A stretch of DNA of 64,000 bases from contig JBHIAE010000002.1 of the NCBI GenBank assembly GCA_046758445.1, positions 74,073 to 138,072 on the forward strand. The letters are read 5' to 3'. Shown piece by piece: positions 15,063 through 63,971 of the stretch. The stretch comes from Candidatus Thorarchaeota archaeon. Its GTDB lineage: Archaea > Asgardarchaeota > Thorarchaeia > Thorarchaeales > Thorarchaeaceae. The notes below the pieces were generated by a model. That model searched no databases, was not told where the DNA came from, and was given only the letters and a program-made list of their open reading frames with translations. A program made the position numbers and the translations under genes. Each line of letters opens with the position of its first letter. Position 1 is the first letter of the stretch.

Positions 15063-15764
15063 GTGGATGACATTCAGGAATTCTCAGGCTTTCCTGAGGA
15101 GGCTCTAGATTTCTTCGGGGAGCTGAGGGAGAACAACTATAGAGATTGGTTCAACGAGAGAAAGAGCGACTATCAGGAGTATGTTCTGAAACCCGCTCAA
15201 GCATTCGTTGTAGCTCTTGGTGAACGCCTGACAGCTATCTCTGACAGCATTATCTCTGACACAAGGACGAATGGCAGAGGATCAATATTGCGGATCTATC
15301 GCGATATCCGGTTCAGCAAGGATAAGTCACCTTATCATACTAGGCTCAGAATCCGGTTCCGGGAGGGCTCTGGAGAGAAGAATACTCAACCGGGTTTCTT
15401 CTTCGCGATGGATGAAACAGGCGGGAGGCTAATGGGAGGGATGCACATGTTTCCAAAGCCCCTTCTTGAGGAATACAGGCAAGCAGTTCTCGATGACCGA
15501 GCTGGTCCCCTTCTGGTAAAGGCCATTGACGGCATCAAGAGCCTGCCTGGATATACCGTTGGAGGCGAGCACTACAAGCGAGTTCCAAGAGGCTTTGATC
15601 CAAATCATCCTCGGGCAGACCTTCTCCGCTATAACACACTGCACGTGAGTTCATCTAGGATTCCAGTCGGCCTCTTGAAGAAGCCTGATCTCATTGATGC
15701 CTGCTTTCAGCATGGTCTCAATATGGCGCCTATCCATCACTGGTTGGTCCAACTATCCCGGTAG
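15063..15764 (+). CDS. DUF2461 family protein
   Basis: NNYRDWF, RIYRDIRFSKDKSPY, KRVPRGF. Confidence 0.88.
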   Translation: MDDIQEFSGFPEEALDFFGELRENNYRDWFNERKSDYQEYVLKPAQAFVVALGERLTAISDSIISDTRTNGRGSILRIYRDIRFSKDKSPYHTRLRIRFREGSGEKNTQPGFFFAMDETGGRLMGGMHMFPKPLLEEYRQAVLDDRAGPLLVKAIDGIKSLPGYTVGGEHYKRVPRGFDPNHPRADLLRYNTLHVSSSRIPVGLLKKPDLIDACFQHGLNMAPIHHWLVQLSR

Positions 15765-33289: not shown

Positions 33290-33407
33290 TGGTGCCGAGG
33301 GGGAGATTCGAACTCCCGAACTCCTACGAGAGTGGATATCTCATTGGAGTTAAGCGATGCTTATTTGATCTTGAGTCCACCGCCGTTGGCCGCTTGGCTA
33401 CCTCGGC
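33290..33407 (-). tRNA. tRNA-Leu(CAA) with 32-nt intron (33338-33369), CCA encoded
   Basis: GCCGAGG acceptor, GTGGA-CTCAAG|intron|A-TCCAC, long variable arm, GTTCGAAT. Confidence 0.93.
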
Positions 33408-45772: not shown

Positions 45773-45879
45773 TGGTGGACCGGGCGAGATTCGAACTCGC
45801 GACCTTTCGGACATTCGATCTACCGGGCAAACCAGCAGGCTTGCGAACCGAACGATCTACCAGGCTGATCTACCGGCCC
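45773..45879 (-). tRNA. tRNA-Ala(CGC) with 30-nt intron (45812-45841), CCA encoded
   Basis: GGGCCGG/CCGGTCC acceptor with G3:U70; TTCGG-TTCGCA|intron|T-CCGAA; GTTCGAAT. Confidence 0.92.
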
Positions 45880-47984: not shown

Positions 47985-48056
47985 TGCTCAACAGTGTGCA
48001 GGTTAATTGGGTAAGTTCACCAACTATCCCCGTTACGCCTGTACTTCATCAAGCTA
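47985..48056 (+). other. 5' strand of the pre-16S processing stem
   Basis: TGCTCAACAGTG (47985-96) pairs with CACTGTTGAGCA (49927-38); GGGTAAGTTC (48009-18) pairs with GAACTTGCCC (49909-18); TCCCCGT/ACGGGGA; CCTGTACTTC/GAAGTACGGG. Confidence 0.8.
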
Positions 48057-49008
48057 AGTTCAAGTGTGTATGAAGGTCATGCGCTGGACCGATACTACTC
48101 CGGTCTACCTTGCCAATGTGCATGATTGAGATCAACTCTAGTTGATCCTGCTAGAGGACACTGCTATCGGCTTGGGGTTAAGACATGCAAGTGGAACGGG
48201 CTCGCATCCGAGTCCGTCGCGAACGGCTCAGTAGTGTCGCTAACCTACCCTGTGGAGGTGGACACCGCCGGGAAACTGGCGTTAATCCACCGTAGGAGCA
48301 TTGTTCTGGAAATGATGTTGCTCTGATATGGGGGCCCTAGGTATGTTGGGCTCTCCGCCGCAGGACGGGGCGGCACCGGATCATACTTGTAAGTGGGGTA
48401 ATTGCCCACTTAGGTTGTGACCCGAACGGGCGATGTAAGTCGTGGCCCGGAGAAGGGCACTGAGACAAGGGCCCTAGCCCCACGGGGTGCAGCAGTTACG
48501 AAACCTCACCAATGCGCGAAAGCGTGAGTGGGCCAAGCCGAGTGATGGGGGATAACTCCATCTGTGGCGAATCCGTATGATGGATTGCTAGAAAGGAGAG
48601 GGCAAGGCTGGTGCCAGCCGCCGCGGTAAAACCAGCTCTTCGAGTTGTGTCCATGATTATTGAGCTTAAAGCGTTCGTAGCCTGTTTGGTAGGTTCCTGC
48701 TTAAATCCGGCCGCCCAACGGTCGGCCTGGTAGGAATACCGCCTTACTTGGGAGCGGGAGACGGCGACGGTATTTCACAGGTAAGGGTGAAATCTAATGA
48801 TCTGTGGAGGACCACCAGTGGCGAAGGCGGTCGCCGAGAACGCGTCCGACGGTGAGGGACGAAACCCAGGGGAGCGAATCGGATTAGATACCCGAGTAGT
48901 CCTGGGCGTAAACGATGCCCGTTAAGTGTTGCATTGGCCACGAGCCACTGCGGTGCTGTAGCGAAAGCGATAAACGGGCCGCTTGGGAAGTACGGTCGCA
49001 AGACTGAA

Positions 49009-49038
49009 TTTGAGAGCCGCTCCGACTCTCGACAGGTC
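49009..49038 (+). other. 16S mini-intron 1 (30 nt, ~E. coli 908)
   Basis: Splits GACTGAA|ACTTAAAGG; GAGAG/CTCTC hairpin, relaxed BHB. Confidence 0.88.
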
Positions 49039-49077
<39 letters not shown>

Positions 49078-49482
49078 GCTTGCGGTTTAATTGGACTCAA
49101 CGCCGGAAAACTTACCCGCCCAGACAGCCGGATGAGAGCCAGACTGATGATCTTGCTCGACGAGCTGAGAGCTGGTGCATGGCCATCGTAAATTCGTGCC
49201 GTGAGGTATCAGCTTAAGTGCTGCAACGAATGAGATCCCTGCCACCTAGTTGCCAGCCGGGGGCTTCGGCCCTGTCGGGGCACACTAGGGGGACCGCCAG
49301 CGAAAAGCTGGAGGAAGGTGGGGGCCACGGTAGGTCCGTATGCCGCGATATGGGCGGGGCCACACGCGTGCTACAATGGCAAGGACAATGCGTTACGACA
49401 CCGAGAGGTGAAGTCAATCGCGAAACCTTGTCGTAGTTGGGATCGGGGGTTGGAACTCACCCCCGTGAACCTGGAATCCCTA

Positions 49483-49512
49483 TCGACTGCAGACTCCCTG
49501 TAGTCGGGGAAA
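49483..49512 (+). other. 16S mini-intron 2 (30 nt, ~E. coli 1346)
   Basis: Splits GGAATCCCTA|GTATCCG; BHB with UCCC/GGGA helix, CGACTGCAG/CTGTAGTCG stem. Confidence 0.9.
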
Positions 49513-49552
49513 GTATCCGCGTGTCACTATCGCGCGGAGAATACGTCCCTGC

Positions 49553-49582
49553 AGGGGACGTGAATCCCACGTACCCGGGGAA
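49553..49582 (+). other. 16S mini-intron 3 (30 nt, ~E. coli 1386)
   Basis: Splits GTCCCTGC|TTCTTGCACAC; CCCU/GGGG helix, ACGTG/CACGT stem. Confidence 0.88.
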
Positions 49583-49686
49583 TTCTTGCACACACCGCCC
49601 GTCGCTCCATGCGAGCGGCTTCTGGGTGAGGCGTTATCCTTTGGGTGATTACGAATCTGGGGGTCGCAAGTAGGGAGAAGTCGTAA

Positions 49687-49716
49687 CTGCGTCACACTTC
49701 GTGGCGTGGCGGAACA
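49687..49716 (+). other. 16S mini-intron 4 (30 nt, ~E. coli 1500)
   Basis: Splits AAGTCGTAA|CAAGG (junction ambiguous by +/-1); TGCGTCAC/GTGGCGTG stem. Confidence 0.88.
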
Positions 49717-49747
49717 CAAGGTATCCGTAGCGGAAGCTGCGGATGGA

Positions 49748-49778
49748 AGAAGTAGAGAGTCACTCTCGCTTCCATCAA
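49748..49778 (+). other. 16S mini-intron 5 (31 nt, just before the anti-Shine-Dalgarno)
   Basis: Splits CGGATGGA|TCACCTCCT; BHB GAUG/CAUC with GAA and AAU bulges, GAAG/CUUC and GAGAG/CUCUC stems. Confidence 0.9.
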
Positions 49779-49946
49779 TCACCTCCTATGTTTTCTACTT
49801 CATAGAGGTAGAAGCAGCTTGCTTGCAGTCCCTCGGGACTGCGAGAGAAGTACGGGCCTTCGACGACGGGGAATGCGGTGCAATCGTGACAGGTTGCCCA
49901 AGGCACGGGAACTTGCCCTAGCCGCTCACTGTTGAGCACCCTTTTC
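49769..49946 (+). repeat. 16S 3' end + processing trailer, copy A (resident)
   Basis: Homologous to 55094-55272; pairs with the 5' leader. Confidence 0.9.
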
Positions 49947-49989
49947 ATTTTGCATTAGATATTCCAAGATGAGATGACACTCCGTTCGA

Positions 49990-50727
49990 TCAACGCAGAG
50001 GCAATCCCTTCTTGAGCCTCTTCAGTTTGAACCTCAGGTCATCCAGCATCTCTTGGTAGTCGATGATATGCTCCTCAGGTCTCTCATCATTTTCAAAATA
50101 TGACTGAAGGAATTCCTCAGTCTCGGCGACAAAGCCCTCTATGATTTCATCTATGTCCCACTTCTTTCCCTCCGGAGGGATGAGGGCACCTGAGCTCACT
50201 CTCTCGCCAGTGATGGATGAAAAGACGCTGACCTGAATGCCACCATAGTCACTGGTGAGTACAACCTGTAGCTGCTCTGAGTCCAGACTGAGAAACGTTC
50301 CTAGGTTCACGGGTCTCAGGTTGAGAGCCCTGGCAATTCGCTTGCTCTCCCTGAATACGATGCCCTTTCTCTCCTTTGGGTCAGTCTCAAACGAGATGTT
50401 GAGCCTACATCTTCGACCCTCAAGGAAGACCTCTTTGGAGCTGATGAGACTGGACACATCGACATCAGAGAGGGGGGAGTTCTCTAGTGCTGACAGGTCT
50501 GAGGCGTCACTCTCTATCCTCCAACAATGACCATGAGCCGAGGCGGTCCCATCAACAAGTGGACAGACACTCTCATCATGTGAGACTGAAACATCTGTTT
50601 CGATTGGAGGTTGATCGAGCAACGCGCTGCAAGTCAGAGGAAAGGGTACATTCACCAGTACAAATGGGGTCTTTCGTTCGATATATGGTCTGAGTAGTTG
50701 AAGCTCCCCATACTCTATATGACTGTA
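49990..50727 (-). pseudogene. 5'-truncated paralog of the 1717-aa protein (C-terminal ~245 aa)
   Basis: IEYGELQLLRPYIERKTPFV..VPFPLT...HDESVCPLVDG...HGHCW aligns with IEYAELQLLRPYVERKTPFV..VPLPLT...HDENRCPLVDG...HGTCW. Confidence 0.88.
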
Positions 50728-50786
50728 ACTTCAGTCATGAAGTTACAAGTGAAACTTTATCAGAATATATGACAAACTTATCATAT
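50724..50786 (+). promoter_or_regulatory. Palindromes upstream of the mer cassette (putative operator sites)
   Basis: TGTAACTTCA-N4-TGAAGTTACA (50724-47), TTTAT box, ATATGA-N8-TCATAT (50767-86). Confidence 0.6.
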
Positions 50787-51111
50787 GATATCTTTGTCAT
50801 TAGATACCAATCCAATGGTCCTGTTCTTCAAGGGCTTAGCCAACGAAACAAGACTGTCACTCCTAAGGACACTCAGCAATAGACCAATGTCTGTTTCAGA
50901 GCTCTGTGCAGAGCTCGACTACGAGCAGAGCCGCGTTTCCCACAACTTGACATGTCTTGAGTTCTGTGGGTTCGTAAATAGTGAGAGGGATGGAAAGAAC
51001 AAGATCTATTCACTGAATGAAGAAACGATTGGACCACTCATGGGTATTGTTGACAATCATATCAGACAGCACGGTCAGAATCTCTTGCAGTGCAAGGTAC
51101 TGAAGAGATGA
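50785..51111 (+). CDS. ArsR/SmtB family regulator (probable Hg-responsive)
   Basis: FKGLANETRL, VSHNLTCLEFCG; adjacent to merA. Confidence 0.88.
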   Translation: MISLSLDTNPMVLFFKGLANETRLSLLRTLSNRPMSVSELCAELDYEQSRVSHNLTCLEFCGFVNSERDGKNKIYSLNEETIGPLMGIVDNHIRQHGQNLLQCKVLKR

Positions 51112-51166
51112 AAGAGGTCCGTTACAGAATGATGATGCTCAGTAACTATAGAAATGGATTGAAAAA

Positions 51167-52873
51167 TTGAGGTTGAACAAGATGGAAGATGAAGAGAGGA
51201 AACACGAGATTAGATTGAGAGTCAAAGGGATGACATGTGACAGCTGCGCTGTACATGTCCAACGAGCTCTTGAGAATGTTGATGGAGTGAACTTGGTCGA
51301 TTTACCAAGTTGGAAGTCCGAGTCAGTACGAGTCATTGCAAGATCAACAATTCCAGATAAGGAACTAACAGATGCTGTCAAAAATGCAGGATATAGTGCT
51401 GAAACAGACAGCAGGTCTGAAACTCACTTGGAACCAGTACTTCCAGTCACACCGAAGACTACAGGATATGACCTTGCTGTGATAGGAACAGGTGGAGCAG
51501 GAGTTGCTGCAGCCATAAAGGGCGCGGAGCTCGGCTACAGAGTCGCTCTAATTGAACGCGGAGAAATCGGAGGAACCTGCGTGAATGTCGGTTGCATTCC
51601 GTCAAAGACACTCATTCGAGCTGCAGAGTCATTTCACAATGCCAAGCACAACCCATTTCGAGGCGTGACAACCACATCAGGAGACCTCGTATGGAAGGAA
51701 GTGATTCTCCAAAAAGACTCACTGATAGAAACATTGCGACGAGAGAAGTACATCGACGTAATCGATGCCTACAAGGACAAGATCTCTGTTTTCAAGAGTC
51801 AAGCTCGACTTACTCATGATGGTGGTGTACAGCTAGAAAATGGGCAAACGATACAGCCTTCCAAGATTGTGATTGCGACAGGAGCAAGACCTCGAATTCT
51901 CTCAGTTGAAGGAGTGTCGGACACAAGTGTGCTTACTAGCACAAGTCTGATGGAAATCAACCAGCTGCCGAAATCGCTCATTGTTATTGGAGGACGGTCA
52001 GTCGCTTTGGAGCTAGGTCAAGCATTCTCGAGGTTTGGGACGAAAGTTACGATTCTTCAACGTAGTAACACGATAATCCCTGCACATGAACCGGAGATTG
52101 CTGAAGCACTTATGGGCTATCTTGAAGAAGAGGGGATAGAGATTATCACTAATGTCAGAGTATTATCGATCGCTGACTCCGGGGAGAAGATTGTTACAGC
52201 ACAAGTCAATGGCGACACGAGAGAGTTCAAGGCTGAGCATGTTCTAATGGCTGTAGGTCGAAAACCAAATACTGAGGACATGGGGCTCTCTGAGGCTAAC
52301 GTCGAACTTGATGAACATGGCTTCATTAAGGTGGACTCTCAAATGCGGACCAGTAATGAGCATGTGTTTGCCGCTGGTGATGTCGCAATCCTACCTAAGT
52401 TTGTCTACGTTGCTGCTGCATCTGGTGGACTAGCAGCTGAAAACGCACTTAGGAACAAAAGAAAGGAACTCGACCTTTCAATCATGCCCGGTATCATCTT
52501 CACCTCGCCTCAAGTTGCGGTTGTAGGTCTTACTGAAGACAAGGCAAAGGATGCTGGATACGAGGTAAAAGTGAGCATATTACCTTTAGAATATGTCCCA
52601 AGAGCATTGGCGGCTCACGACGTACGGGGTCTCATTAAGCTCGTTGCCGATGCAGAATCCAATTGTCTTCTTGGTGCGCATGTTCTTGCAGAAGACGCTG
52701 GCGAGATAATTCAAACAGCGGTCATGGCCATTCTAATGGGGCAGAAATATGGTTTCACAGTATCAGACTTCCAGAGTTTATTGTTCCCCTATCTCGTACA
52801 GGTTGAGGGATTGAAACTTGCGGCTCTGGCATTTTATAAGGATGTTTCTAAGCTATCTTGCTGTGCAAGCTAA
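51167..52873 (+). CDS. merA: Mercuric reductase
   Basis: N-terminal HMA GMTCDSC, GGTCVNVGCIPSK, FVYVAA, FPYL, C-terminal LSCCA. Confidence 0.95.
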   Translation: MRLNKMEDEERKHEIRLRVKGMTCDSCAVHVQRALENVDGVNLVDLPSWKSESVRVIARSTIPDKELTDAVKNAGYSAETDSRSETHLEPVLPVTPKTTGYDLAVIGTGGAGVAAAIKGAELGYRVALIERGEIGGTCVNVGCIPSKTLIRAAESFHNAKHNPFRGVTTTSGDLVWKEVILQKDSLIETLRREKYIDVIDAYKDKISVFKSQARLTHDGGVQLENGQTIQPSKIVIATGARPRILSVEGVSDTSVLTSTSLMEINQLPKSLIVIGGRSVALELGQAFSRFGTKVTILQRSNTIIPAHEPEIAEALMGYLEEEGIEIITNVRVLSIADSGEKIVTAQVNGDTREFKAEHVLMAVGRKPNTEDMGLSEANVELDEHGFIKVDSQMRTSNEHVFAAGDVAILPKFVYVAAASGGLAAENALRNKRKELDLSIMPGIIFTSPQVAVVGLTEDKAKDAGYEVKVSILPLEYVPRALAAHDVRGLIKLVADAESNCLLGAHVLAEDAGEIIQTAVMAILMGQKYGFTVSDFQSLLFPYLVQVEGLKLAALAFYKDVSKLSCCAS

Positions 52874-53020
52874 ACAAATGGCTCTTTCAGTAAAAGCGGG
52901 TCTTAGTACAAACATCTCAAAACAGCTTAGCGCTTCAGCGGGGCTTTCAGCTCACCACGATTGATGCCTTACTTATGCAGCTAAAGCAATGCTCTTTTCT
53001 CCTGATACAGTGAGAGTCAT

Positions 53021-53581
53021 TTGGGAATGCTGATGAGAGAAGTGAAATTCGAACCAGATTTGAGCAAACGCTTGCAGAAACAGTATGGGATGGAGAACCC
53101 CCCCGCCACCCTATCTGAGGTCATCAAGTTTGTCAAGGCACAGGTGCTTGCAACAGCTGGGGGTCGAGAATGGGTAGCATCGATTCGGAAAGGCAAGGTC
53201 ACAATCGGAGAAACGGACTTAGAGCGTGGGCTGTCCATCGTTTCGCCGGACGGGCGCGAGATAAAGGTCATGTGCGGCTACGATTCCCTGGGGACGGCTC
53301 TGCTACGCGGGGAAGGCCTAGTCAAGGCCACATGCTTCCACTGCGGTGAGAAGATGGAACTCGAGATTGAGGACAGCAAACTCGTTCATGCCTCCCACCC
53401 CTCAATCGTTTTTTGGATAGGAGACGGCCCTAAGGGCATACCATTCTGTGACCACTACAACTTTTTCCCGGATCAGAAACACCTAGATGGCTGGCTGGAT
53501 ACGAACCCTGAGGAGCTTGGTGTTGTACTATCTTTGGATGAAACGATTGAATTCCTGAATCTTTCGCACAAAGGATTGTGA
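53021..53581 (+). CDS. merB: Organomercurial lyase MerB-like protein
   Basis: MCGYDSL (cf. WCAxD), CFHCGE, C..YNFF; downstream of merA. Confidence 0.75.
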   Translation: MGMLMREVKFEPDLSKRLQKQYGMENPPATLSEVIKFVKAQVLATAGGREWVASIRKGKVTIGETDLERGLSIVSPDGREIKVMCGYDSLGTALLRGEGLVKATCFHCGEKMELEIEDSKLVHASHPSIVFWIGDGPKGIPFCDHYNFFPDQKHLDGWLDTNPEELGVVLSLDETIEFLNLSHKGL

Positions 53582-53605
53582 GTCAGATTTCGTATCTTCT
53601 TGTTT

Positions 53606-53705
53606 GATGTCTTCCCTCTGAGGTAAAGAGAATAAGAGGCTAACGGGGCTGGGTGTACAGGTAACCTGCCCCAGCACACAACGCTGAGCATTCTTTCATT
53701 TTGCA
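53606..53705 (+). repeat. Degenerate 16S trailer, copy C
   Basis: ACGGGG..GGTG..CTGCCCCAGC..CTGAGCATTCTTTCATTTTGCA resembles 49866-49954. Confidence 0.6.
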
Positions 53706-54203
53706 ATGCTCATACATTTCGGATATCCAAAATGTCTAGCCGGGATGAGATCGAAAAGTCCAGGTGGGCTGATTGTTACGAGCAAAGGCCATCCGATTAC
53801 AAGTGAAAGTCCGAGGACTTAAGATAGAGTATCTCAGGTCAGAAAGTACTCGACATTGATACCTATGGATGTTTTTTTGCTGTTTTCTGTGCCATCTTTC
53901 TCACTCCACCAAGACCCGCTCTTTCGTATATTGAAGATAGTAATTTACATAGCAATCATTGTATAATTATAGTATTCTATTGATTTTTTGATTATATTTA
54001 TAAGCGAGTCACAATCCGCCCAATCGTGCCTATCTATTATATAGACACGTAATGGTACACAGGTACAGAAGAAGACCGCTGCCGACATGATGATTGGTGC
54101 CTGCATTGGATTGCCTATGATGTGTAGAGCATGCGTAAACTCTTGGCTGAAGTGAATTCCCATCACTGTGGAGCATTCCTCTTAATATTGAGAAGGGATT
54201 AGA

Positions 54204-54509
54204 TTGGAGAAGGAAGGACAAATCCAGATATTGGAGAACGCATTGAAGCGTCTTAGAAGTGATGCACTGCTTATTCTATCAAAGATTGACCTCCCAGCAG
54301 ATTTGGAGGAGGTTGATGAGATCCTCAGAGAGGAGGAGTGGCTGGCAGGTCCTGATGAGCATGCAGTCATTGATTTGATCCGTAGCTTGGCCATCATAGC
54401 TACAGCCCTCAGACCAGACGTCTTTGGAGAAGCTATAAGACTGTTGATTCGTGTACTGAAGGACGATTTTGGAGAAGATGAATGGGAGGTTAATGACCAT
54501 GAGGATTAA
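54204..54509 (+). CDS. Hypothetical acidic protein
   Basis: ORF with a helical acidic profile; no motif recognised. Confidence 0.5.
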   Translation: MEKEGQIQILENALKRLRSDALLILSKIDLPADLEEVDEILREEEWLAGPDEHAVIDLIRSLAIIATALRPDVFGEAIRLLIRVLKDDFGEDEWEVNDHED

Positions 54510-54615
54510 TCTGTCTGCATTCATCTTCACTGGTCAGATCTCTAACGGAGATGCAACGGTTTGTTTAGCAGGTTTCTTTGAACGGTTTTATGCCAAAGGA
54601 GATGAGTTGTGAAAG

Positions 54616-55032
54616 TTGCAGTTTCTCCAAATACTTCTGGACCGGTTTGATAGTGATAGTGGAAATCCGCTGAAGAGGGCAATCGATGCACTTGATATGA
54701 TCGAATACTCAATCACCTATCCAGTGTGCAATACCATCACAAAGGAAGAGATAGAGGAAATCGAAGTACGTGTGAAGAAGCTGCTCACTGAGTTGAATAA
54801 TGATCCGGTTCTTGCCAGCAGAATTGAAAAGTGGTGGAATAAGCGTAGTCACTGTCAGGACACGGCCAAAAAGATGCATGTAAATGAACATGAGCACATT
54901 GACTTCCTTCGCTATCATGAGAGGATAATCAGCATCAGAAAGGCAAAGGTGGCTTTGATGAAGCATCTCAGAAACGAGGAATTGTCATTAGAGGAGCATG
55001 GCCTCTTAGGAAGCAAGTATCATCATTCATAA
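54616..55032 (+). CDS. Hypothetical protein
   Basis: ORF only. Confidence 0.5.
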   Translation: MQFLQILLDRFDSDSGNPLKRAIDALDMIEYSITYPVCNTITKEEIEEIEVRVKKLLTELNNDPVLASRIEKWWNKRSHCQDTAKKMHVNEHEHIDFLRYHERIISIRKAKVALMKHLRNEELSLEEHGLLGSKYHHS

Positions 55033-55093
55033 TCTGTCCGTGATTGCCTCCAGCCAATTAGACAACAGAGGCGCGTCATCGAGAATACATCAT

Positions 55094-55272
55094 CTTCCAT
55101 CAATCACCTCCTAAGTTTTCTACTTCTTAGAGGTAGAAGCAGCTTGTTTGTGGTCCCTTTGGGACTGCAAAAGAGGTACGGGTCCTAACGACGGGATAGC
55201 GGTGCAAAAGGAACTAGATTCCTCAGCGCCAGATTGGCACTTGCCCTGGTGTACGCTGTTGAGCACCCTTTC
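55094..55272 (+). repeat. 16S 3' end + trailer, copy B (starts inside intron 5)
   Basis: CTTCCATCAATCACCTCCTA.GTTTTCTACTTC.TAGAGGTAGAAGCAGCTTG...CTGTTGAGCACCCTTT. Confidence 0.92.
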
Positions 55273-55314
55273 TTTCTTCAATGGATGGGAAATCAGTACT
55301 AACGAGTGACGGTG

Positions 55315-58300
55315 CTACATCTTCTTCTCTATCCTTCTCTTCAGAGCCTCGACCCTCTTGAATCGTTCCTTATCACTATCCGCTTTCCATCTTCGAAGAC
55401 GTTCTTCAAGAATCTCAAGACTGTCTACCACAGCCGAGTGAGCAGCTTGAAGGTTTCTCTTTTTCAGATGAAACTTGGTCAGTTCTTCTAGAATGTCTGC
55501 AATCTCCTCCGAGAGCTCGGGGTCGTCCAAGGTCTTCTTCTTCAGTTCGAGTAATGCCTCAAGGTCACCCTCACTGTCATGTTCTCCCTTGGCAGTTGTC
55601 AGATGTTCAGTGTGAATAGCAACTAGAATGGACTCCATGTCATCAATCAACGAGTCGTAGTTCCGAACCCTCTCTTCCGGTTCTTCTCCTTCCCCAAAAT
55701 ACCCTGTGACAATGTTCTCAATATCATTAATTGCATTGCTGAGGGCAGTCTGCACATCCATCTCAATGCTCAAAGATGTGATCAGCCATGAGTAGACCTG
55801 CTCGCCAGTAGCATCAGAGATAGCTGATAAGACAACTCCGATACCATCCCTATCCCTTCTGACTGAACACTCGAGTTTCTCATGATCCATCCAAAGAAAG
55901 GTACCAGGGAGCAATCGTTTCAGACCAAGCTGTCTGGCAATACGGCTGCTCTCTCTATAGACCCCACCCTCACGTGATGCAAGGTCGTTCTCAAACTCTA
56001 GATCTAGTGCATATCGTGATCCTTCGAGAAACACTTCTCGTGCCGCGAGAAGACTTGATACATCTTGGTCATTGAGAGGCTTATCAAAGAGTGCGTTGAA
56101 GTCAGCAGGTCTTGTACTGCTTTCAGGTCTAAGCACCCAACATGTGCCGTGAGTTTCTGCTGAGCCATCCACGAGAGGGCATCTATTCTCATCATGTGCT
56201 ATTATGACAGACATCTTTCTAGGCACTTGTTCTGCCAACTCCTGACTGGTCAGGGGAAGAGGAACACTTGCGTGGACAAATGGTGTCTTTCTCTCTACAT
56301 AGGGTCTGAGTAGCTGCAGTTCAGCATATTCGATATCCCTGTAAGGATCCCATGTGAAGTAGACATTTGGACTCTTTGTGCTCTGCAGTGGTATACCATC
56401 AACCAACGGTCTACGTAGAATGCGAAGCAAGTCTGAGGTTTGCTCAGAATATCTGATGTCAAGTTTTTCCCCATTAGACTTGATGTTGATAGAATATGTC
56501 CCAGAGTCAATACCGAGTTCACACTGAACACTAATGATGTGTTGTTTCATTTGACCAATTTCCAGGAACTCGTTTTCAATCCTGTTTGGCAAGTCCGTTG
56601 GAATAGTCACTCCTGCAGGGACTTCTGGAATTCTGGATGAAGACATTGGTACTACCTGCAAACCTCTGATGTTCGTTATTGCACTCTTCTTTCTCGGAAT
56701 GATCACAAGCTCACCCAAAAGGTTCCAATTCCCCTCTGCAAAGAACCATACATACTCTGTCCCCTCCATCTTGCAGGTCAATAGACTATGGACTTCTTGA
56801 GGTTCCACAGTTGAAGCATGGTCCGCAATCTCACTGGCGTTCGACTCTGACCAACGAATTGATGAACCTGGATCCAATGGGTTCATACCAATCCAGAGAC
56901 CTGAACGAAGACGGTTCTGGTCATAGTGGTCCTCGAGGAATACCCAGTGTTCGTAGCCATCCCCACTTGGAGCCACCAGAAGCTGACCATACCTGACTGC
57001 TGACTGTACAGGCAGAGGTATTTGAGATAGGACTGAGGCTCTCTTGCAGAGGTTAGACCAAACAGCTCTGACATCGAACTTCGGTCTTGCAACTTCTGAC
57101 ACATCTCTCAGATAGAACCCGACCTGTCTTAGGTGCCAAGACTTCATCGTCATCCAAAGACTCTGAATCTGTTCAACCGGAAGGTCCGGATATTTCCTTG
57201 TCAGTGCCGCTAGCAGGAGAATCAAGTAGTTCCCATACAGGCTCGTGACATATGGTCTACTCTCAAGAAGCATCTCCAGCTGGTCCTGCTCATTCAATCG
57301 AAGACAAACGCCGAGTCTTCTCTCTCGAAACCATTGCATCGAGCCCCAGAGGTCAGAGGTCGCAGCATGGACCATAAACAGCTCTGAAACCCTGTTCAGG
57401 TCATCCAAAGCAGGCTGGACTCCCTTTGCAGGAATGATGCGCTCCAGCTGTTTGAGAAGGTCCAGCCAAGACACATCTGTCGCCCAAGACTCTTTTTGTC
57501 TGACAAGAAGTTTCAGAACCTGTCTGAGCCGTCGAAGCTCCACATTTCGGGCAGTCTGTTCCCTCAGGCTTCTGAACTCAAGGTGTGACTCATCAGGTGC
57601 TCTATAGGTCTGAGTGTTCAGAGTCCTCCGTTTCATTCGACGATATCGCCTGTAGTGCCGAGGGTGAGTGATTGTTTCATTGGGTATCAGTTGTTGATGA
57701 GAAACATAACCTCTCTTCCCCTTTGCTCTCGTTACTCTAGCACGATACCTCACCCTCGCCATGATACTCTTTGGCTTCATGGGTTTTCCATAGAGTGGTA
57801 TGACCTGGGAAGAGAGTGTGATACCATCTCTTTCCATCATCTTCTTACAGATGTTTGGATGAAGGACACAGAGCCAAGGAATGAGGTCGATTGAATCCTT
57901 GATCAGTTCTTCCCCAAGCTCGTTCATCCTGATGATGTCCTCAGCAGAGAGAGCATCACGCCCTCGATCTCCAGTGTGTCCCTTCTTCCTGCCTGTTCGC
58001 TTACTCTTCTTACTCCAGAAGCGTGCTGACCAGTTCTCAAGTATAGGCACTTCAATCAACTCTGTTTTGACTGACTCTCTTGTTTGTTTGACAATCACTC
58101 TCAGGTCATCGAGCATTGGTGTGGTCTGGACTGAGGTGTAAGGTCTGACTGGAAGATTCCAGACAATGTCCGTGACATGTAACCTGTGTTTAGATGAGTT
58201 CCAGAATGGGAGTAAGCAACGACTATGATACTTCTCTGACGTCCGCTCATCAGGTCTTGGCTGAAGGAACCAGACAGATGTGCTTCCTGTCTTGCTGATT

Positions 58301-60468
58301 TCCTGAATCATGTACCTCTCAAGCTCCTCCAACACTGGTCTGAGCCTTGGAGGGAGAGAGTCCTCAATCCACTGCCATCCACTGATAACGACAATACCCT
58401 TGGTAGATAGTGACTCAATCTCTGGGTGGTTTCCTCCTTGGAACAGGAACTGTTCAATGCTATGTGACATATCAATAATCTTGATGTTATCAAAGAAGGA
58501 TTGGACACCCTTTTCATGGCATGAGAGTCTGAGTCGCTTCTTGACTAGCTCATCATGACTGAATTCTCCAGAGAGATCCAGCCAAGTGATTGGTGTATTG
58601 TCACGCCATGAACTCAACTTCTGAAGATAGTGTAATCCATGCCAGTATCTAGCCAACCAAGCCGCTGTGAATCCTGAATTAGATGCTGATTTTGCACTTA
58701 GATACAGGATATGCCTTGTAGCGGTGTCCTGAACCTCTGAGAAGGGATCGAACTTGTCTTCGGTTTCCTGCGGGTTTTTCTCTGACTCCAATACTGTGAA
58801 CTGGTCCTCTGATAGTGAGTGGATGACCAAAGCCGCCCTCTGAGCAATAGGGTCCTTGGACCGGATGAGTAGCCTGTCACATCCTTTCAGCTTGCTCTTC
58901 AAAGAATGATCTTCTACCAAGATGTCCAGAAGCGAACGAACAACAGTCCGATTCAGTCCTATATCGAACTGAGTGTCTAGTAGGACAATCCCCTTGAGGA
59001 TATCTGGGAGCGACTCATCTCCTGTGAGTCTACGATACTCCTCCACAAGTCCGCCTGCATATAGACTCAATTGCTGAACGTCATCATCCTCAGGGACTTC
59101 AACAAGGGCATCATTCCACTCCTCATCTGTCATTCCTCTCTTCCTGACAATAAATCTTGGGACAGTCTTGTTTCTCTTCCCCTTCGATTTCTCGGTCCGA
59201 ATCTCCCAATCGAAGCTGGTCCGTGTCTTCATGTCAAAGACAGCAACCGGTTTCATTACAACCAGTTGCCCCGGTTTCTTTGGATTTGTAATCATAGTCC
59301 TGACAAACAGACCGAGGTCTATTCGACCAGGTCCCTCACCTGTTCCTAGTCGTGACTCGCCCACAAGAAGGTAGTCTTCGCCGGGCTGGAGAAAACGATC
59401 TCCTCTCAGGACTACTGACTCTGCAGTGTAAGTCTGTGGCAGTCCATCCGTGATGAGTCTGTGATACCTGATTCCCTCATATCGAGCTTTGTTCCTCACG
59501 ATTTTATACAGGTGTCTAGCATCCTGCGCCTTCAGCTTTGGATTCTTCTTTGGTGTGAGTTCCTTGAGAAACCGCGTCCATGTCTGTAGTTTTCGAGCTT
59601 CCTCCTTGGGCACTTTTCTGCTGGCTTGTTGAAGCTCTGTTATCTGATATTGAAAGAACTTCTCATCTAGAGGTTTATCATCACCTGTTCTAGTCCTTGA
59701 TGGGAAGACCTGCTTAGACGAACCTGTAACATACAGACCGTTCAGCTCGTCAACAAGTTCTCTAAGAATCTCATCAGCACACTTCTCCTTGACACTCGCT
59801 CTGGGACGCAGAAAATGACTGCTCCCAAGTTTGGTGTCTGCATAGATGTAGTCGACAAAAGGGGCAAGACGACGGATGAGTAGGAGTGCATATGAATCAA
59901 AGTCATTGGGGGGAACACCAAAGATTAAGGACTTGCGACACAACTCACGCCCATGAGACCGTATCATATCTGCAAGATCAAGCTCTGCCAAGTCCGCCCC
60001 ATGTGCAACGGGCACAGGACCAACTTCGTCGCTGGTGTATCCCCAGATGGTCTTTCTCTTCTGTTGTCCAATCTTTACTGGGGTTTCAAGTGGATACATC
60101 AGCAGGAAGTAATCTCTAAGTTTGGCTCCAAAGATGTTGATGAGCTTGTTTAACGGTCCAACAATTCCCTCTCTCTCGTTTCTCACTCGTTTGGTTTCGG
60201 TGTTTCCATAACTGGCTGTTGTTTCCCATATGTTCTCTAATTCTAGATCTCGAAGTCGTTTCTCTCTATCAGCAACAGGTGAGAAGTCAGGTTGTCCTTG
60301 TCTAAGACTTGTGTTCCACTTCTTGAGAGCAGCATCCAGTCGATTTTGCGCCTTTGAATACAGATGCTTTGTATCTTTGTTTGTACGTTCACGTAGCAAA
60401 CTCACTAGTGCTTTCAAACCAATGGTGTGTGCCTGAACCACTGTTTTTCCAGGATCTTCTGGAAACAC
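55315..60468 (-). CDS. 1717-aa unknown protein with a RecB/Cas4-like PD-(D/E)XK nuclease motif
   Basis: GRIDLG...VFDMKT...QQLSLY motif order; long intact ORF; paralog remnant nearby. Confidence 0.75.
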   Translation of the reverse strand: MFPEDPGKTVVQAHTIGLKALVSLLRERTNKDTKHLYSKAQNRLDAALKKWNTSLRQGQPDFSPVADREKRLRDLELENIWETTASYGNTETKRVRNEREGIVGPLNKLINIFGAKLRDYFLLMYPLETPVKIGQQKRKTIWGYTSDEVGPVPVAHGADLAELDLADMIRSHGRELCRKSLIFGVPPNDFDSYALLLIRRLAPFVDYIYADTKLGSSHFLRPRASVKEKCADEILRELVDELNGLYVTGSSKQVFPSRTRTGDDKPLDEKFFQYQITELQQASRKVPKEEARKLQTWTRFLKELTPKKNPKLKAQDARHLYKIVRNKARYEGIRYHRLITDGLPQTYTAESVVLRGDRFLQPGEDYLLVGESRLGTGEGPGRIDLGLFVRTMITNPKKPGQLVVMKPVAVFDMKTRTSFDWEIRTEKSKGKRNKTVPRFIVRKRGMTDEEWNDALVEVPEDDDVQQLSLYAGGLVEEYRRLTGDESLPDILKGIVLLDTQFDIGLNRTVVRSLLDILVEDHSLKSKLKGCDRLLIRSKDPIAQRAALVIHSLSEDQFTVLESEKNPQETEDKFDPFSEVQDTATRHILYLSAKSASNSGFTAAWLARYWHGLHYLQKLSSWRDNTPITWLDLSGEFSHDELVKKRLRLSCHEKGVQSFFDNIKIIDMSHSIEQFLFQGGNHPEIESLSTKGIVVISGWQWIEDSLPPRLRPVLEELERYMIQEISKTGSTSVWFLQPRPDERTSEKYHSRCLLPFWNSSKHRLHVTDIVWNLPVRPYTSVQTTPMLDDLRVIVKQTRESVKTELIEVPILENWSARFWSKKSKRTGRKKGHTGDRGRDALSAEDIIRMNELGEELIKDSIDLIPWLCVLHPNICKKMMERDGITLSSQVIPLYGKPMKPKSIMARVRYRARVTRAKGKRGYVSHQQLIPNETITHPRHYRRYRRMKRRTLNTQTYRAPDESHLEFRSLREQTARNVELRRLRQVLKLLVRQKESWATDVSWLDLLKQLERIIPAKGVQPALDDLNRVSELFMVHAATSDLWGSMQWFRERRLGVCLRLNEQDQLEMLLESRPYVTSLYGNYLILLLAALTRKYPDLPVEQIQSLWMTMKSWHLRQVGFYLRDVSEVARPKFDVRAVWSNLCKRASVLSQIPLPVQSAVRYGQLLVAPSGDGYEHWVFLEDHYDQNRLRSGLWIGMNPLDPGSSIRWSESNASEIADHASTVEPQEVHSLLTCKMEGTEYVWFFAEGNWNLLGELVIIPRKKSAITNIRGLQVVPMSSSRIPEVPAGVTIPTDLPNRIENEFLEIGQMKQHIISVQCELGIDSGTYSINIKSNGEKLDIRYSEQTSDLLRILRRPLVDGIPLQSTKSPNVYFTWDPYRDIEYAELQLLRPYVERKTPFVHASVPLPLTSQELAEQVPRKMSVIIAHDENRCPLVDGSAETHGTCWVLRPESSTRPADFNALFDKPLNDQDVSSLLAAREVFLEGSRYALDLEFENDLASREGGVYRESSRIARQLGLKRLLPGTFLWMDHEKLECSVRRDRDGIGVVLSAISDATGEQVYSWLITSLSIEMDVQTALSNAINDIENIVTGYFGEGEEPEERVRNYDSLIDDMESILVAIHTEHLTTAKGEHDSEGDLEALLELKKKTLDDPELSEEIADILEELTKFHLKKRNLQAAHSAVVDSLEILEERLRRWKADSDKERFKRVEALKRRIEKKM

Positions 60469-60718
60469 CAGACTAACTCCTGAATCAAACTAAGCGGGTT
60501 TTTCCCTTTTCTATTTTGCTTGAAACCTGAAACTTCCACATTTTGAACCTCAAATTAGAAATACGTTTAATAAATTTAAATATGATTCTGTATCAAATAA
60601 AGTGTGGAGAATATCAAGCAACCTCCGAGAAATGAGGTTGAGTGAAACTCCCCGACCGGAAACGGGTCGGAAATTTAAATATGTGAGGTTAAATCTCGTG
60701 GGTCGCTCCAGTGGCGTG

Positions 60719-62368
60719 ATGATAACGGTCAAGGTCCCTGTGAAATGGGATGTGATGACAGACAGACAGAAGACACGTCTGTCCAGAATCACAAGTCGGG
60801 ATACCAGAGTCATCAAGGCCTATCTTGGAGTGATTGAGAAACACGAGAGAAACCTCCTTGTTGGAAAGAACAAGAAACGACTTGATGCAGGGAAGATAGA
60901 CGAACTAACATTATGCACGGATACAAGAACAGTTCTTCACGATTTCAAAGACAGATTCCCGAACATCTCAACGAACGAACTGCAGGAGTGTAGAGAGACT
61001 GCCATCGGAATGTGGAGGGTGTATCTCGCACTTGGTAGAAACAAACCACTACAGGGTACAGGGTACAGGTCAAAGAAGTTACCCCGTCACATGTTCACCC
61101 GGATGTTCAAGTTCACCTATACTCCTGAGAAAGAGATCAAACACTGGCTGATTTTTCGTGACTCGCTAGATTCAGTGAGAGAAGGAAGAAAGACTCATGA
61201 CAGGTTGGCAACACCTCTGAGTCCTTCATCATATCATCTCAATCGTCTGAAGTCTGGTGAGGTCAAATCTATCCAGATTGTGAAAGACAGGAATCGGAAG
61301 TGGTGGGTTCTTTTCAAGGTGAAGGTGAACTCAGAGTCTTTAGACGACGAATCAAAACCGTTCGCAGTGATTGGTATTGACTTGGGAATAAAGAAGGCAG
61401 TCTGTTCAGTAGTGCTGACCAAGAAAGGACTTCGACATGTAAGATATTGGACTGATAGAGAGAAGGCAAAACACATCGAAGGCTATGATAGGATGGTGGC
61501 CAGTCTTCAACAGAAGAGGGACTCTTCTCTCCATTCTGACGATGTCACAAGACGACTCCGAACAATCAGTTCAAGACGTGAGAACATCAGTTTTGACTAT
61601 GACCGTGTCCTTGTGAAAAGACTCGCTGAGCATATTCTCGAACTATCGCAAGAGTTTGACCTCTATGTTTCGATTGGCAAGTTGAAGGGAATCCGTAATC
61701 GTGCTAGGAAAGGTGATGGAAAAGGTCGTCGGTTTCGCGGCATGATAAACAGATGGTCTTTTGCTCGAATCACTAACTCTCTTCAGCACAAGCTCAGTAT
61801 GAGTGGATTCGACCCGAAGAGAGTCCATGCAGTATCAGAGGCATGGACAAGCATCAAGTGTCACAAGTGTGGGTCAAAAGGATACAGACCAAAACAGAGC
61901 TACTTTCTCTGTCACACCTGTGGATATCGCGACAACGCAGACAAGAACGCTGCAATCAACATTGCTCTGCGTTTGATTAGGCTCATTCCCTCCTTGAGGG
62001 GTGAGAAAGGACTAGGGACTTGGTTCTCTAGATGGAAGACCTCCCCGAAGACCCAAAGGACTCGTTCTAAAGGGATGTCCTTAGCTCCTGAGAGTTCACT
62101 AGACTCGTCTGTAGGGAGCACCGTGGCTGACTGTCATGACCAGGCTTCTCTTGAGGAGTTTGCGAGCAGTACCGACCTAGCCATGGAAAAGACCATGGAA
62201 ACACCGCCTGCCATCACGGAATCTAGTGACCATGATAGTATAGTGCAGCGGACAGAAACTCAGTCTGTGAAGAGGAGTCATATTCCAGTGACTCACAGCA
62301 AAACTCGTGCACACCCAACAGGAGAGGTCCTGCTGGTCGCTGGTGACAGCAGTCATGAGGAGGGTTGA
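60719..62368 (+). CDS. tnpB: TnpB/Cas12f-like RNA-guided nuclease with rearranged RuvC-II and a C-terminal extension
   Basis: RuvC-I VIGIDLG, SIGKL, SEAWTS, CHKC/CHTC Zn ribbon, RuvC-III NADKNAAINI; start moved to the ATG after the TTTAAATA box. Confidence 0.9.
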   Translation: MITVKVPVKWDVMTDRQKTRLSRITSRDTRVIKAYLGVIEKHERNLLVGKNKKRLDAGKIDELTLCTDTRTVLHDFKDRFPNISTNELQECRETAIGMWRVYLALGRNKPLQGTGYRSKKLPRHMFTRMFKFTYTPEKEIKHWLIFRDSLDSVREGRKTHDRLATPLSPSSYHLNRLKSGEVKSIQIVKDRNRKWWVLFKVKVNSESLDDESKPFAVIGIDLGIKKAVCSVVLTKKGLRHVRYWTDREKAKHIEGYDRMVASLQQKRDSSLHSDDVTRRLRTISSRRENISFDYDRVLVKRLAEHILELSQEFDLYVSIGKLKGIRNRARKGDGKGRRFRGMINRWSFARITNSLQHKLSMSGFDPKRVHAVSEAWTSIKCHKCGSKGYRPKQSYFLCHTCGYRDNADKNAAINIALRLIRLIPSLRGEKGLGTWFSRWKTSPKTQRTRSKGMSLAPESSLDSSVGSTVADCHDQASLEEFASSTDLAMEKTMETPPAITESSDHDSIVQRTETQSVKRSHIPVTHSKTRAHPTGEVLLVAGDSSHEEG

Positions 62369-62415
62369 ACATGGAAGTTGATGGTGGAGAGATTTCACTC
62401 GCCTTTTCAGGTCGG
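62160..62415 (+). ncRNA. Putative omegaRNA/tracr-like scaffold overlapping the tnpB 3' end (5' boundary uncertain)
   Basis: CCGACCTA (62172-79) is complementary to the repeat TAGGTCGG; TnpB omegaRNAs typically overlap the gene 3' end. Confidence 0.55.
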
Positions 62416-62544
62416 ACTAGGGATTCCGGGTTTGACTTGATTTCCAATAGGTCGGACCTTGTTACGACTCTATTCGTGTTAGGTAAGCCTTTCGCAAGCA
62501 GGAGAATATCACCAATCCACACACGTCGGGGATCACCTCCTAAG
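62408..62544 (+). CRISPR. Non-canonical mini guide array: (AG)GTCGG repeats plus three 16S-matching spacers
   Basis: GTCGG at 62411, 62451 and 62525, followed by ACTAGGGATTCCGGGTT, ACCTTGTTACGACT and GGATCACCTCCTAAG. Confidence 0.8.
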
Positions 62545-62634
62545 ACAGAATATCTCTCAAGGATTCTGAGAGTTGGATATATAGCCATTAAATCATGAAG
62601 TATAGATGATTTCCTAGAAGATGAGGGAAATAGA

Positions 62635-63651
62635 ATGAATCGTAAGAATAGGATGGGATTAATCAAGAAGCTTGAAAATAACAGAGGCTCCAAGGTACTG
62701 GCGTATATTACTGGTGATAGGAGGGGGCTAGAAACCAAGATTGCTATGGATGTCTTTCCAATGTTTCACGAGCATCTTAGCCAGATTGGGAAACAGGATA
62801 GGATTGATCTCTTCATCTATAGTCCTGGCGGATTGACGATTGCAGGATATGCTCTAGTGAATCTCATTCGTGAGTTCTGCAATGACTTCAATGTCATCAT
62901 CCCATTCAAGGCTCTGAGCACAGCAACTATCATCGCTCTTGGGGCTAATGAGGTTCTAATGACACCTATGGGACAACTAAGTCCTATAGATCCATCAGTT
63001 GAGCATCCATTGGGTCCTATTGTCCAGATTCCTGGTCAAGCCCGTGGTGGAATAGCCCCGGTAAATGTAGAAGATGTAAATGCATTCGTTGACTTGGCTA
63101 GAAAGGAAATCGGGCTAAGGGAAGAAGAATCCATGAAGAAGGTCTTTGAGCTTTTGGCTGAGAAGATACACCCTCTAGTTCTAGGAGCAGTTCATAGATC
63201 ACGTGAGCAGATTGGTTTCTTGGCTTCAAACCTGATGAAGTACCACTGCAATGATGAAAATCAAATTGAAAATGTAGTCAACGTTCTGACAAGAGAGCGT
63301 TTCTCTCACAATTACATCATAAGTCGTAGAGAGGCTAAAGAGAATCTATGTTTGAACATAATCGAACCAGATGAAGAACAGACTGAGATTATTGTTGACT
63401 TGTTCAATGCATATGAACAGATACTCAAGCTGAGTGTTCCTTATCATCCCGAAACTACCTTAGGTGATCAAGAGGTCGGTTCAGCTGTGTTCAACAGAGG
63501 AATTATAGAATCAGCAAATATGACACATGTATTTAGGACCAACAAAGAGATAAGAAGAGCTGAGGTAAGACAACCAGGAATTCCAGTTCCAGTCTATGCG
63601 TATCCTGAGCGGCTCATTCAAGAAGGATGGCTTGTCGATAACGAATTATAA
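62635..63651 (+). CDS. SDH family ClpP-fold serine protease
   Basis: IDLFIYSPGG, KALSTAT, LSPIDP, SHNYII. Confidence 0.85.
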   Translation: MNRKNRMGLIKKLENNRGSKVLAYITGDRRGLETKIAMDVFPMFHEHLSQIGKQDRIDLFIYSPGGLTIAGYALVNLIREFCNDFNVIIPFKALSTATIIALGANEVLMTPMGQLSPIDPSVEHPLGPIVQIPGQARGGIAPVNVEDVNAFVDLARKEIGLREEESMKKVFELLAEKIHPLVLGAVHRSREQIGFLASNLMKYHCNDENQIENVVNVLTRERFSHNYIISRREAKENLCLNIIEPDEEQTEIIVDLFNAYEQILKLSVPYHPETTLGDQEVGSAVFNRGIIESANMTHVFRTNKEIRRAEVRQPGIPVPVYAYPERLIQEGWLVDNEL

Positions 63652-63662
63652 GGTGTGGTTCG

Positions 63663-63857
63663 TTGGAAGAAGAGAAGAAGAAACTCCCCGTGTTTGAAAC
63701 CTCAAATACGAGTGGGCTCACTTCCATTCAACAACTAACAGATGACACTCCGAATGAAGTCTTTACAATCAGGCATAGCACATCCGGGACAGAAACTGTG
63801 CTTTTAGTGGAGCCTCCTGAAGAGGCAGAGGAGCAAGAAGAAACAGATGAAGAATGA
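63663..63857 (+). CDS. Small acidic hypothetical protein
   Basis: ORF after a GGTG RBS-like motif; Glu-rich tail. Confidence 0.45.
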   Translation: MEEEKKKLPVFETSNTSGLTSIQQLTDDTPNEVFTIRHSTSGTETVLLVEPPEEAEEQEETDEE

Positions 63858-63892
63858 ATTCCATCTTCATTAAATGACATTTCAACAATGTA

Positions 63893-63971
63893 GAGAGAAG
63901 TGTAGGCGGCGGTGATAGAGAGATTGGGGATCTGCCCTTCTGTCACTGTTGAGCACCCTTTCTCTTTTGCA
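63893..63971 (+). repeat. Partial 16S trailer, copy D
   Basis: GAGAGAAGT...GCGGTG...TGCCCT...TCACTGTTGAGCACCCTTT matches copy A. Confidence 0.8.

Follow-up and report, generated by a model that had tools for sequence, protein, structure and literature searches.

A row of cassettes ending in copies of the 16S rRNA trailer in a Thorarchaeota genome, and its possible growth by gene capture

Ribosomal RNA (rRNA) genes are regarded as the most stable, vertically inherited part of prokaryotic genomes and serve as their taxonomic yardstick. In archaeal chromosomes, rows of captured genes have reportedly been found, with integrative elements sitting at the 3' ends of tRNA and transfer-messenger RNA (tmRNA) genes. 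The locus described here places such a row at an rRNA gene. It lies in the last 64 kb of contig C2 (the window, whose end is the contig end) of G000, a Thorarchaeota (Asgard) genome bin of 3.25 Mb in 113 contigs, 92.7% complete. Behind the sole 16S gene of this genome runs a row of accessory genes whose blocks end in copies of the 16S tail and of its processing trailer, the RNA segment that pairs with the leader in the pre-16S precursor. With a little more confidence than doubt, we read this row as a gene-capture array, built by serial capture through host recombination anchored in conserved rRNA sequence.

The likeness to tRNA and tmRNA integrative elements is one of outline. In both cases DNA lands at a stable-RNA gene whose 3' end is rebuilt by the incomer, the displaced part is left as a direct repeat, and successive events pile up tandem elements and leave remnants that decay. 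Here, however, the target is an rRNA gene and the duplicated part includes a leader-pairing trailer of about 170 nucleotides (nt); no whole or split integrase lies in or near the units; relic edges fall over about 16 nt and not at one point; and many units are single cassettes, not elements. The R2 and other rDNA retrotransposons of eukaryotes are likewise aimed at an rRNA gene and leave 5'-truncated copies with a common 3' end, a comparison already drawn by the initial annotation, which was made from the letters of the window alone. Nothing supports an RNA-mediated route: in contrast to R2, the genome holds no reverse transcriptase, the insertions lie behind the gene and not inside it, and the cargo consists of ordinary cellular genes. 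Homology-facilitated illegitimate recombination, said to have been described in naturally transformable bacteria, also uses one conserved anchor to admit foreign DNA and leaves an untidy second joint near that anchor, but it has been seen in laboratory transformation of bacteria and is not known to build standing arrays.

Two further systems are known from Asgard archaea themselves. HeimM2 and HeimV2 of Heimdallarchaeum sit between the sole 16S gene and a tRNA-Arg gene, and a co-opted homing endonuclease has been proposed for them (Wu et al. 2022, PMC8813620). They share with the present locus an Asgard host, mobile DNA (some of it with giant genes) immediately downstream of the sole 16S gene, and reuse of the site; the same paper describes neither duplicated 16S tails or trailers nor cassette rows. 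Their giant genes, of 3000-6000 amino acids (aa), stand in tandem. Integrons and integrase-less attC clusters have been reported as enriched in Asgard archaea (Ghaly et al. 2022, PMC9668308), and the accessible portion of the supplementary tables of that study includes Thorarchaeia genomes. As in integrons, small cassettes rich in toxin-antitoxin and resistance genes run here in one direction from one fixed chromosomal site, the repeat at the cassette ends is similar within a genome, and the cassette order is shuffled between genomes. Unlike integrons, the row has no IntI, its repeats are rRNA trailer copies without attC-type hairpins, its cassettes have their own promoter-like regions and hold genes in both orientations, and it is anchored on an rRNA gene.

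The 16S gene occupies positions 48135-49787 of the forward strand. The Rfam model for archaeal 16S (RF01959, 1191 bits) matches 48135-49722 and misaligns the end, which reading of the sequence extends to the true 3' end at 49787. The gene carries short inserts, the last two of which matter here: insert 4, of 28-30 nt at about 49688-49715, stands after GTCGTAAC, and insert 5, of 31 nt at 49748-49778, separates GGATGGA from the terminal exon TCACCTCCT (49779-49787). The 23S gene lies on a different contig. For comparison, related Thorarchaeota metagenome bins (G numbers) and a set of contigs or contig stretches, some from independent metagenomes (L numbers), were used; G007 and G011 belong to the same genus as G000, and G018 to another. 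Among these, the 16S gene of G018 (L095, from G018:C9, about 15480-15530 against window 49680-49787) is without inserts 4 and 5, those of G007 and G017 carry both, with differing insert-4 sequences, and other Thorarchaeota have only insert 5.

The gene is enclosed by the two strands of a processing stem. Its leader (47986-48056, forward strand) provides the 5' strand, with the 11-mer GCTCAACAGTG at 47986-47996 pairing with the core of the trailer. The working trailer, copy A (49788-49954, forward strand), consists of two hairpins, three leader-complementary segments, the core GAGCACCC and a T-rich end. Cofolds of leader and trailer in four genomes form the long helix expected of an archaeal pre-rRNA processing stem, and the two strands covary between genera: in G018 the core pairing is kept by an A>G change in the leader and a T>C change in the trailer, and a compensatory change is also present in G011. 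The repeated sequence is thus the 3' strand of the pre-16S processing stem, as the initial annotation had proposed from its pairing with 47985-48056. The same annotation had pointed to compensatory changes within the trailer (CTATG/CATAG against CTAAG/CTTAG), and these are upheld in 28 16S tails from many Thorarchaeota. There the pair it had named and the two hairpins are paired in 90% of cells, against 46-52% when the partners are slid, and its variable pair occurs as AU in 11 tails, UA in 10, GU in 3 and CG in 1. Relic trailers are paired as well as working ones, and all three trailer types found in these genomes retain the three leader-complementary segments. Because this complementarity and the covarying hairpins are kept, and because one of the relic types is at work in G011, the relics derive from functional trailers.

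Four copies of the trailer lie in the window, all on the 16S strand. Copy A with its 16S tail (49769-49954) and copy B (55090-55281) match over 65 nt at 92% in a repeat search, and over 181 nt at 78% (E about 1e-31) by BLAST against the whole 3.25 Mb genome. Their homology of about 185 nt takes in the last 10 nt of insert 5, the terminal 16S exon and the entire trailer through its core and T-rich end; B begins at 55094 by the repeat search and at 55090 by BLAST. A and B are therefore true homologues, as claimed for a repeat of about 180 bp starting inside insert 5 and recurring at 55094-55272, and they form a direct repeat of the 3' part of the 16S gene in which the 16S tail itself stays complete. 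Two shorter stretches, previously taken for degenerate copies of the same repeat (about 53606-53705 and 63893-63971), are real copies that belong to other trailer types. Copy C (53611-53706) is a decayed type III module that closes a cassette containing merB, and copy D (63893-63971) is a type II module, the type that serves as the working trailer of the G011 16S gene; the window and contig end 29 nt after D, in a stretch that overlaps contig C14. C and D share mainly their last 35 nt or so with A and B. The 16-nt core is found three times exactly in the window and four times with at most three mismatches, where 0.5 occurrences are expected by chance. That A and B are each followed within about 45 bp by the stop codon of a giant gene or its paralogue also holds: the stops at 49990 and 55315 lie 35 and 33 nt past A and B.

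What lies between A and B is the newest insertion. It opens with the 3' fragment of a giant-gene paralogue on the reverse strand, an open reading frame (ORF) at 49990-50655 that corresponds to residues 1401-1611 of the giant protein at 42% aa identity; a tblastn search extends the similarity to 50727, covering residues 1376-1611 at 46%. A mercury-resistance operon follows on the forward strand, complete with regulator, mercuric reductase with metal-binding domain and organomercurial lyase: an ArsR-type regulator (50785-51111, Pfam ArsR-type HTH), MerA (51167-52873, Pfam Pyr_redox_2 with dimerisation and HMA domains) and MerB (53021-53581, Pfam). Past copy C, two small forward-strand ORFs of 101 and 138 aa (54204-55032) make up the last cargo of the unit; neither matches Pfam or PADLOC models, and for the shorter one paralogues occur in the G005 and G015 arrays.

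The site without this unit is seen in relatives, the comparison that the initial annotation had called for. G007 and G018 both read 16S, trailer, giant gene and TnpB with no mercury unit (in G018 the protease is next), positions 55090-62474 of G000 are collinear with G007 at 85.6% over 7.4 kb, and L167 carries a B-type tail, trailer and giant-gene end at 91%. Since all three observations place B with the old arrangement, B and its flank represent the old resident trailer and the mercury unit the newest arrival, and B is the former working trailer of this lineage. The A side is foreign by the same kind of comparison: the giant fragment beside A is 71% identical in aa to L055 and 51% to L035, both from other Thorarchaeota, against about 45% to the giant gene of its own genome 5 kb away, and trailer A is nearest to the working trailer of another metagenome-assembled genome (83.6%, against 78% to B). 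As both pieces are closer to other bins than to their own copies, the incoming DNA came, at least in part, from other Thorarchaeota. A single crossover inside trailers A and B was tried as a description of the joint and rejected; B is collinear with G007 from its first base, and its middle is simply diverged.

The arrangement downstream of B is of another kind. The giant gene (55315-60468, reverse strand, 1717 aa) is a conserved neighbour of the 16S trailer, with orthologues directly past the trailer in G007 and G018, 4 kb further on in G017, and past the trailer also in L035 and L076; the protein has no match in Pfam, PADLOC or the ESM Atlas. It is followed by a TnpB (60602-62368, forward strand; Pfam PF07282, PADLOC Cas12f models), Cas12f-like, whose orthologue is the first or second gene past the 16S gene in G007, G018, G017, L171 and L178, and by an SDH-type, ClpP-like serine protease (62635-63651, forward strand, Pfam) that is syntenic with G018 at 86% aa identity. 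Between G000 and G018, upstream housekeeping proteins are 49-75% identical, the giant protein 42%, TnpB 69% and the protease 86%. These values fit long residence beside the 16S gene and not recent arrival, and giant gene, TnpB and protease are not an incoming element: in at least three genera they stand as conserved residents at the row's head. By the measure of IS200/IS605 elements, TnpB is present and the Y1 transposase TnpA absent, and the synteny across genera fits a resident gene. The proposal that incoming elements bring their own tail and trailer and displace the old ones consequently stands for the mercury unit, with its foreign trailer and giant fragment and with B pushed downstream, and falls for the giant-TnpB-protease unit. 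The association of giant-gene and TnpB loci with 16S ends, on which that proposal had been made to depend, recurs in the relatives, and the proposal withstood this test. As a variation, L171, a metagenome contig of 1333 nt, has a 16S gene with an A-type trailer, then about 95 nt and directly tnpB, with no giant gene. Paralogues of the giant gene (about 26-35% aa) are paired with TnpB at five loci of G000, on C37, C85, C102 and C38 and at window 55315-62368.

The row continues past the contig end. Over its last 55 nt, C2 agrees exactly with the start of C14 in reverse complement and with no other contig end, and contig G015:C15 carries an array together with the same chloride-channel flank, in support of the join. 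The resulting C2+C14 scaffold holds, from 49.8 to 94.6 kb, seven tail-and-trailer copies along with about nine shorter modules, each of them on the 16S strand. The C14 tail-and-trailer copies are at 66.7, 83.9, 85.8, 88.3 and 94.5 kb of the scaffold; past 94.6 kb there are no more of either kind. The accessory row behind the 16S gene is thus at least 45 kb long, with blocks that each end in a tail or trailer copy, and only one stray trailer copy occurs elsewhere in the genome: a lone module at G000:C1:134581-134628 (L125, 4581-4628), inside a contig of 179 kb and far from both rRNA genes. The majority of modules are short trailer copies, truncated on the 5' side, and delimit single cassettes, among them toxin-antitoxin cassettes of 0.8-1.5 kb with a module each. 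The row runs in one direction from one fixed site, as an integron does. The cargo on C14 includes ParE, PIN, HicA, VapB and UPF0175/DUF3368 toxin-antitoxin pairs, GNAT acetyltransferases, a racemase, radical-SAM enzymes, a metal P-type ATPase, an HNH nuclease and ABC transporter genes. With a G+C content of 0.44-0.475, the units fall below both the genome (0.494) and the two flanks (0.485-0.49). The cargo is typical accessory DNA.

Similar rows are widespread among the relatives. A 16S gene with working trailer and co-oriented modules is found in G018:C9, G011:C94, G005:C21 and G007:C162, and like module rows occur on contigs without a 16S gene in G015:C15, G001:C51, G020:C39 and G024:C9. In all, at least 10 relatives carry them, and independent metagenome contigs do as well, with five full copies within 5.7 kb in L207 and five copies in L155. 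Modules resemble the working trailer of their own genome or genus, and mosaic modules are seen. An ATPase unit with its module, copy F, is about 97.5% identical between G000 and G007, with a patch of lower identity within the copy that bears the mark of gene conversion; directly beyond the T-rich module end the homology halts abruptly, and from there the two genomes carry different cassettes. The order of ParDE, VapBC and further cassettes is altered in L207, L213 and L178. The merB cassette is common to G000 and G015:C15 at 88.5% nucleotide identity. In G015 it is flanked by a module at either end. The G000 cassette is fused to the merA end, and the match begins at 52842, inside that gene. 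Over 52842-52873 the last 10 merA codons stem from the 5' region of the G015-type cassette, and no module stands between. Cassette borders are fuzzy wherever identity is below 90%, and for the ParDE cassette common to G000 and G001, at 85%, divergence of the non-coding flanks hides the position of the joint. Since single-cassette modules shuffle between genomes, the locus resembles a cassette array driven by recombination more than it does stacked, discrete islands. One contig of 7433 nt, L103 (G007:C335), has ends that map 300 nt apart on C14 (scaffold 81076 and 81381), either side of a type II module, with 4 kb of other genes between; this circular permutation could reflect an excised circle or a tandem arrangement.

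The edges of the modules are unequal. Among about 55 modules of the relatives, nearly all share the position of their 3' end, and the 5' ends vary. The 5' edges of the copies that bear a 16S tail (about 28) fall mostly in a zone of 16 nt that reaches from the insert-4 site over the left arm of helix 45; a few others are close to insert 5 or within it, and none extends further into the 16S gene. These 5' edges are in this sense clustered, yet spread over about 16 nt with outliers.

No enzyme or carrier that might make these joints was found with the array. Pfam scans of the ORFs from 49.9 to 100 kb gave no recombinase or element-encoded integrase, and G000 as a whole, at its 92.7% completeness, has no match to the Y1 transposase (PF01797), to serine recombinases or to reverse transcriptases (PF00078). 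Its two tyrosine recombinases (PF00589) are on contigs C34 and C52, neither of which is an array contig. The earlier impression that no tyrosine or serine integrase or reverse transcriptase is visible was accordingly correct for the ORFs of the array. PF00589 also has no match in eight of 11 array-bearing relatives (G001, G005, G007, G011, G015, G017, G020 and G024, three of them 93-97% complete), which would leave these eight without a recognisable Xer-type recombinase. Transposases of the IS110 family are absent from the 16S array, and nothing was found that would form a self-contained element, with an att site and a recombinase of its own. Viral contigs, scanned for exact copies of the 16S-tail motif and of the trailer core, showed chance matches in unrelated genes and nothing else, and a literature search for genomic islands at 16S ends gave no match.

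How could such a row grow? Serial insertion behind the 16S gene, displacement of the older tail and trailer and later recombination between relics are shown by the data; the recombination route and the break that begins it belong to the model. In the model that we favour, new DNA would enter at the last 30-75 nt of the 16S gene, carrying its own 16S tail and trailer, which would become the working ones; the old tail and trailer would be shoved downstream as a relic, with the earlier cargo behind them. Repeated capture would build the cassette row, at least 45 kb long here, with each cassette ending in a trailer relic. The relics would then recombine with each other and with the working trailer, giving gene conversion, deletion, excision and re-insertion, and so shuffle single cassettes between positions and genomes. 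The engine would be host recombination, with one side anchored in conserved rRNA and the other an untidy join in the resident tail or trailer, a type of join that resembles homology-facilitated illegitimate recombination or break-induced copying. That every relic keeps its leader complementarity would follow from the need of an incomer to bring a trailer able to pair with the leader of its host. The idea that each cassette has its own miniature processing stem was rejected; the sole reverse-strand core is the true leader, and none lies inside the arrays.

Several points weigh against this model. The first entry of a wholly new cassette is left unexplained by it. The clustered 5' edges are unpredicted by plain homologous recombination and point to a preferred break or a site-specific step; a break near helix 45 could be caused by a palindrome, by the end of a heavily transcribed gene or by TnpB. 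The constant 3' edges are as expected for a defined crossover site, and repeat-mediated recombination would look alike. The length of the row, moreover, depends on the C2-C14 join, which we infer from the 55-nt assembly overlap and synteny.

Could the trailer be a recombination site in its own right? An integron-like system would have a trans-acting recombinase at the trailer core and T-rich end, with the working trailer in the part of attI and the relics in that of attC. The constant 3' edges speak for it, with homology that ends exactly past the module, as do the single toxin-antitoxin cassettes of 0.8-1.5 kb with modules of their own, the sharing of cassettes in different order between genomes, the likeness of modules within a genome or genus, as in chromosomal integrons, and the enrichment of integrase-less attC clusters reported for Asgard archaea. 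Such a system is nevertheless unlikely. A tyrosine recombinase is missing from the array contigs and from the eight relatives named above, and a crossover at the trailer end cannot make the downstream copies of the 16S tail. Judged by shuffled-sequence z-scores for modules of two types, both strands as DNA (the comparison used in place of a formal attC covariance model), the modules fold as single strands no better than shuffled sequence, with z from -1.0 to +1.1, and no internal inverse core site was found. The trailer core does not occur in the accessible portion of the supplementary tables of PMC9668308. The other route to a preferred site is an RNA-guided break, in which the TnpB at the head of the row would cut 16S alleles that lack protecting inserts, and copying from an array template followed by end joining would leave the relic. 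The flank past tnpB (62430-62545, forward strand) contains three segments, each 12-15 nt long and set apart by a GGTCGG-like repeat; two in antisense and one in sense orientation, they correspond to the insert-free 16S 3' region to either side of helix 45. G007 and G018 have kept them, and such 16S-derived segments occur at one of 13 TnpB loci in G000 and at none of the other 12, four of whose flanks are cut by contig ends. The orthologue stands close behind the 16S gene in five relatives, and relic 5' edges start just inside the predicted target by helix 45 and never beyond. This route is quite unlikely all the same: the matches span just 12-15 nt, and the nuclease role is a prediction from sequence; the arrays behind the 23S gene, described below, have no such TnpB nearby; G011, G005 and G024 have arrays and no adjacent orthologue; and the insert-free 16S gene of G018 matches one segment over 13 nt, so that an active nuclease would attack its own host. 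A bolder and rather improbable proposition joins the two, with rRNA tail and trailer standing in for attI and attC, a guide-carrying TnpB standing in for the integrase by starting captures, and the 16S mini-inserts acting as self-protection, which together would make a new platform for gene acquisition.

The plainest alternative, local tandem duplication or an assembly artefact that merged strains, with no import of DNA, is very improbable. The bin is a metagenome assembly of 113 contigs, the contig breaks at the repeat, and such repeats can confuse assemblers. Against this, divergence reaches 22% between A and B and 55% in aa between the giant-gene pieces beside them, beyond both strain variation and the species distance between G000 and G007, and the same layout appears in many independent assemblies, long contigs included. 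The mis-assembly of strain variants, which the initial annotation had named as the outcome that would undo its reading, is unlikely for the same reason.

Serial capture, if it has shaped this locus as read here, would mean that across an Asgard family foreign genes have a standing way in at the 3' end of the sole 16S gene and, it seems, of the 23S gene, and that the closing part of the gene, with mini-insert and processing trailer, is itself swapped between lineages. It would account for the frequent position of 16S genes at contig ends in these bins, and it would mean that the 16S 3' end may have a history unlike that of the rest of the gene. It would also describe a cassette system that works without an integron integrase, and might explain part of the integrase-less Asgard 'integrons'. 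The conserved TnpB at the head of the row, with its 16S-matching segments, opens a direct test of whether RNA-guided nucleases and gene capture are linked.

The phenomenon apparently extends to the 3' end of the 23S gene. In G000, 23S 3'-end and trailer sequence lies at C53:15301-15480, and the last 70 nt or so of the gene with its trailer are copied twice on C67 (12323-12475 and 14198-14227), once on C97 (4273-4349) and once on C8 (65273-65365); one of these copies adjoins an AbiE toxin-antitoxin pair. In 12 genomes of the same genus, 5'-truncated copies with a common 3' end stand in tandem behind the 23S gene at a spacing of about 0.4-1.5 kb. The 23S gene is followed after 1.5 kb by an IS110-family transposase gene (L124, 1864-3000; G000:C53:16864-18000), and other IS110-family matches, on C6, on C86 and in the upstream part of C2, are unrelated to the 16S array. 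Upstream of the 16S gene in the window, two tRNA genes of 104 nt (45776-45879) and 115 nt (33293-33407) are evidently intron-bearing.

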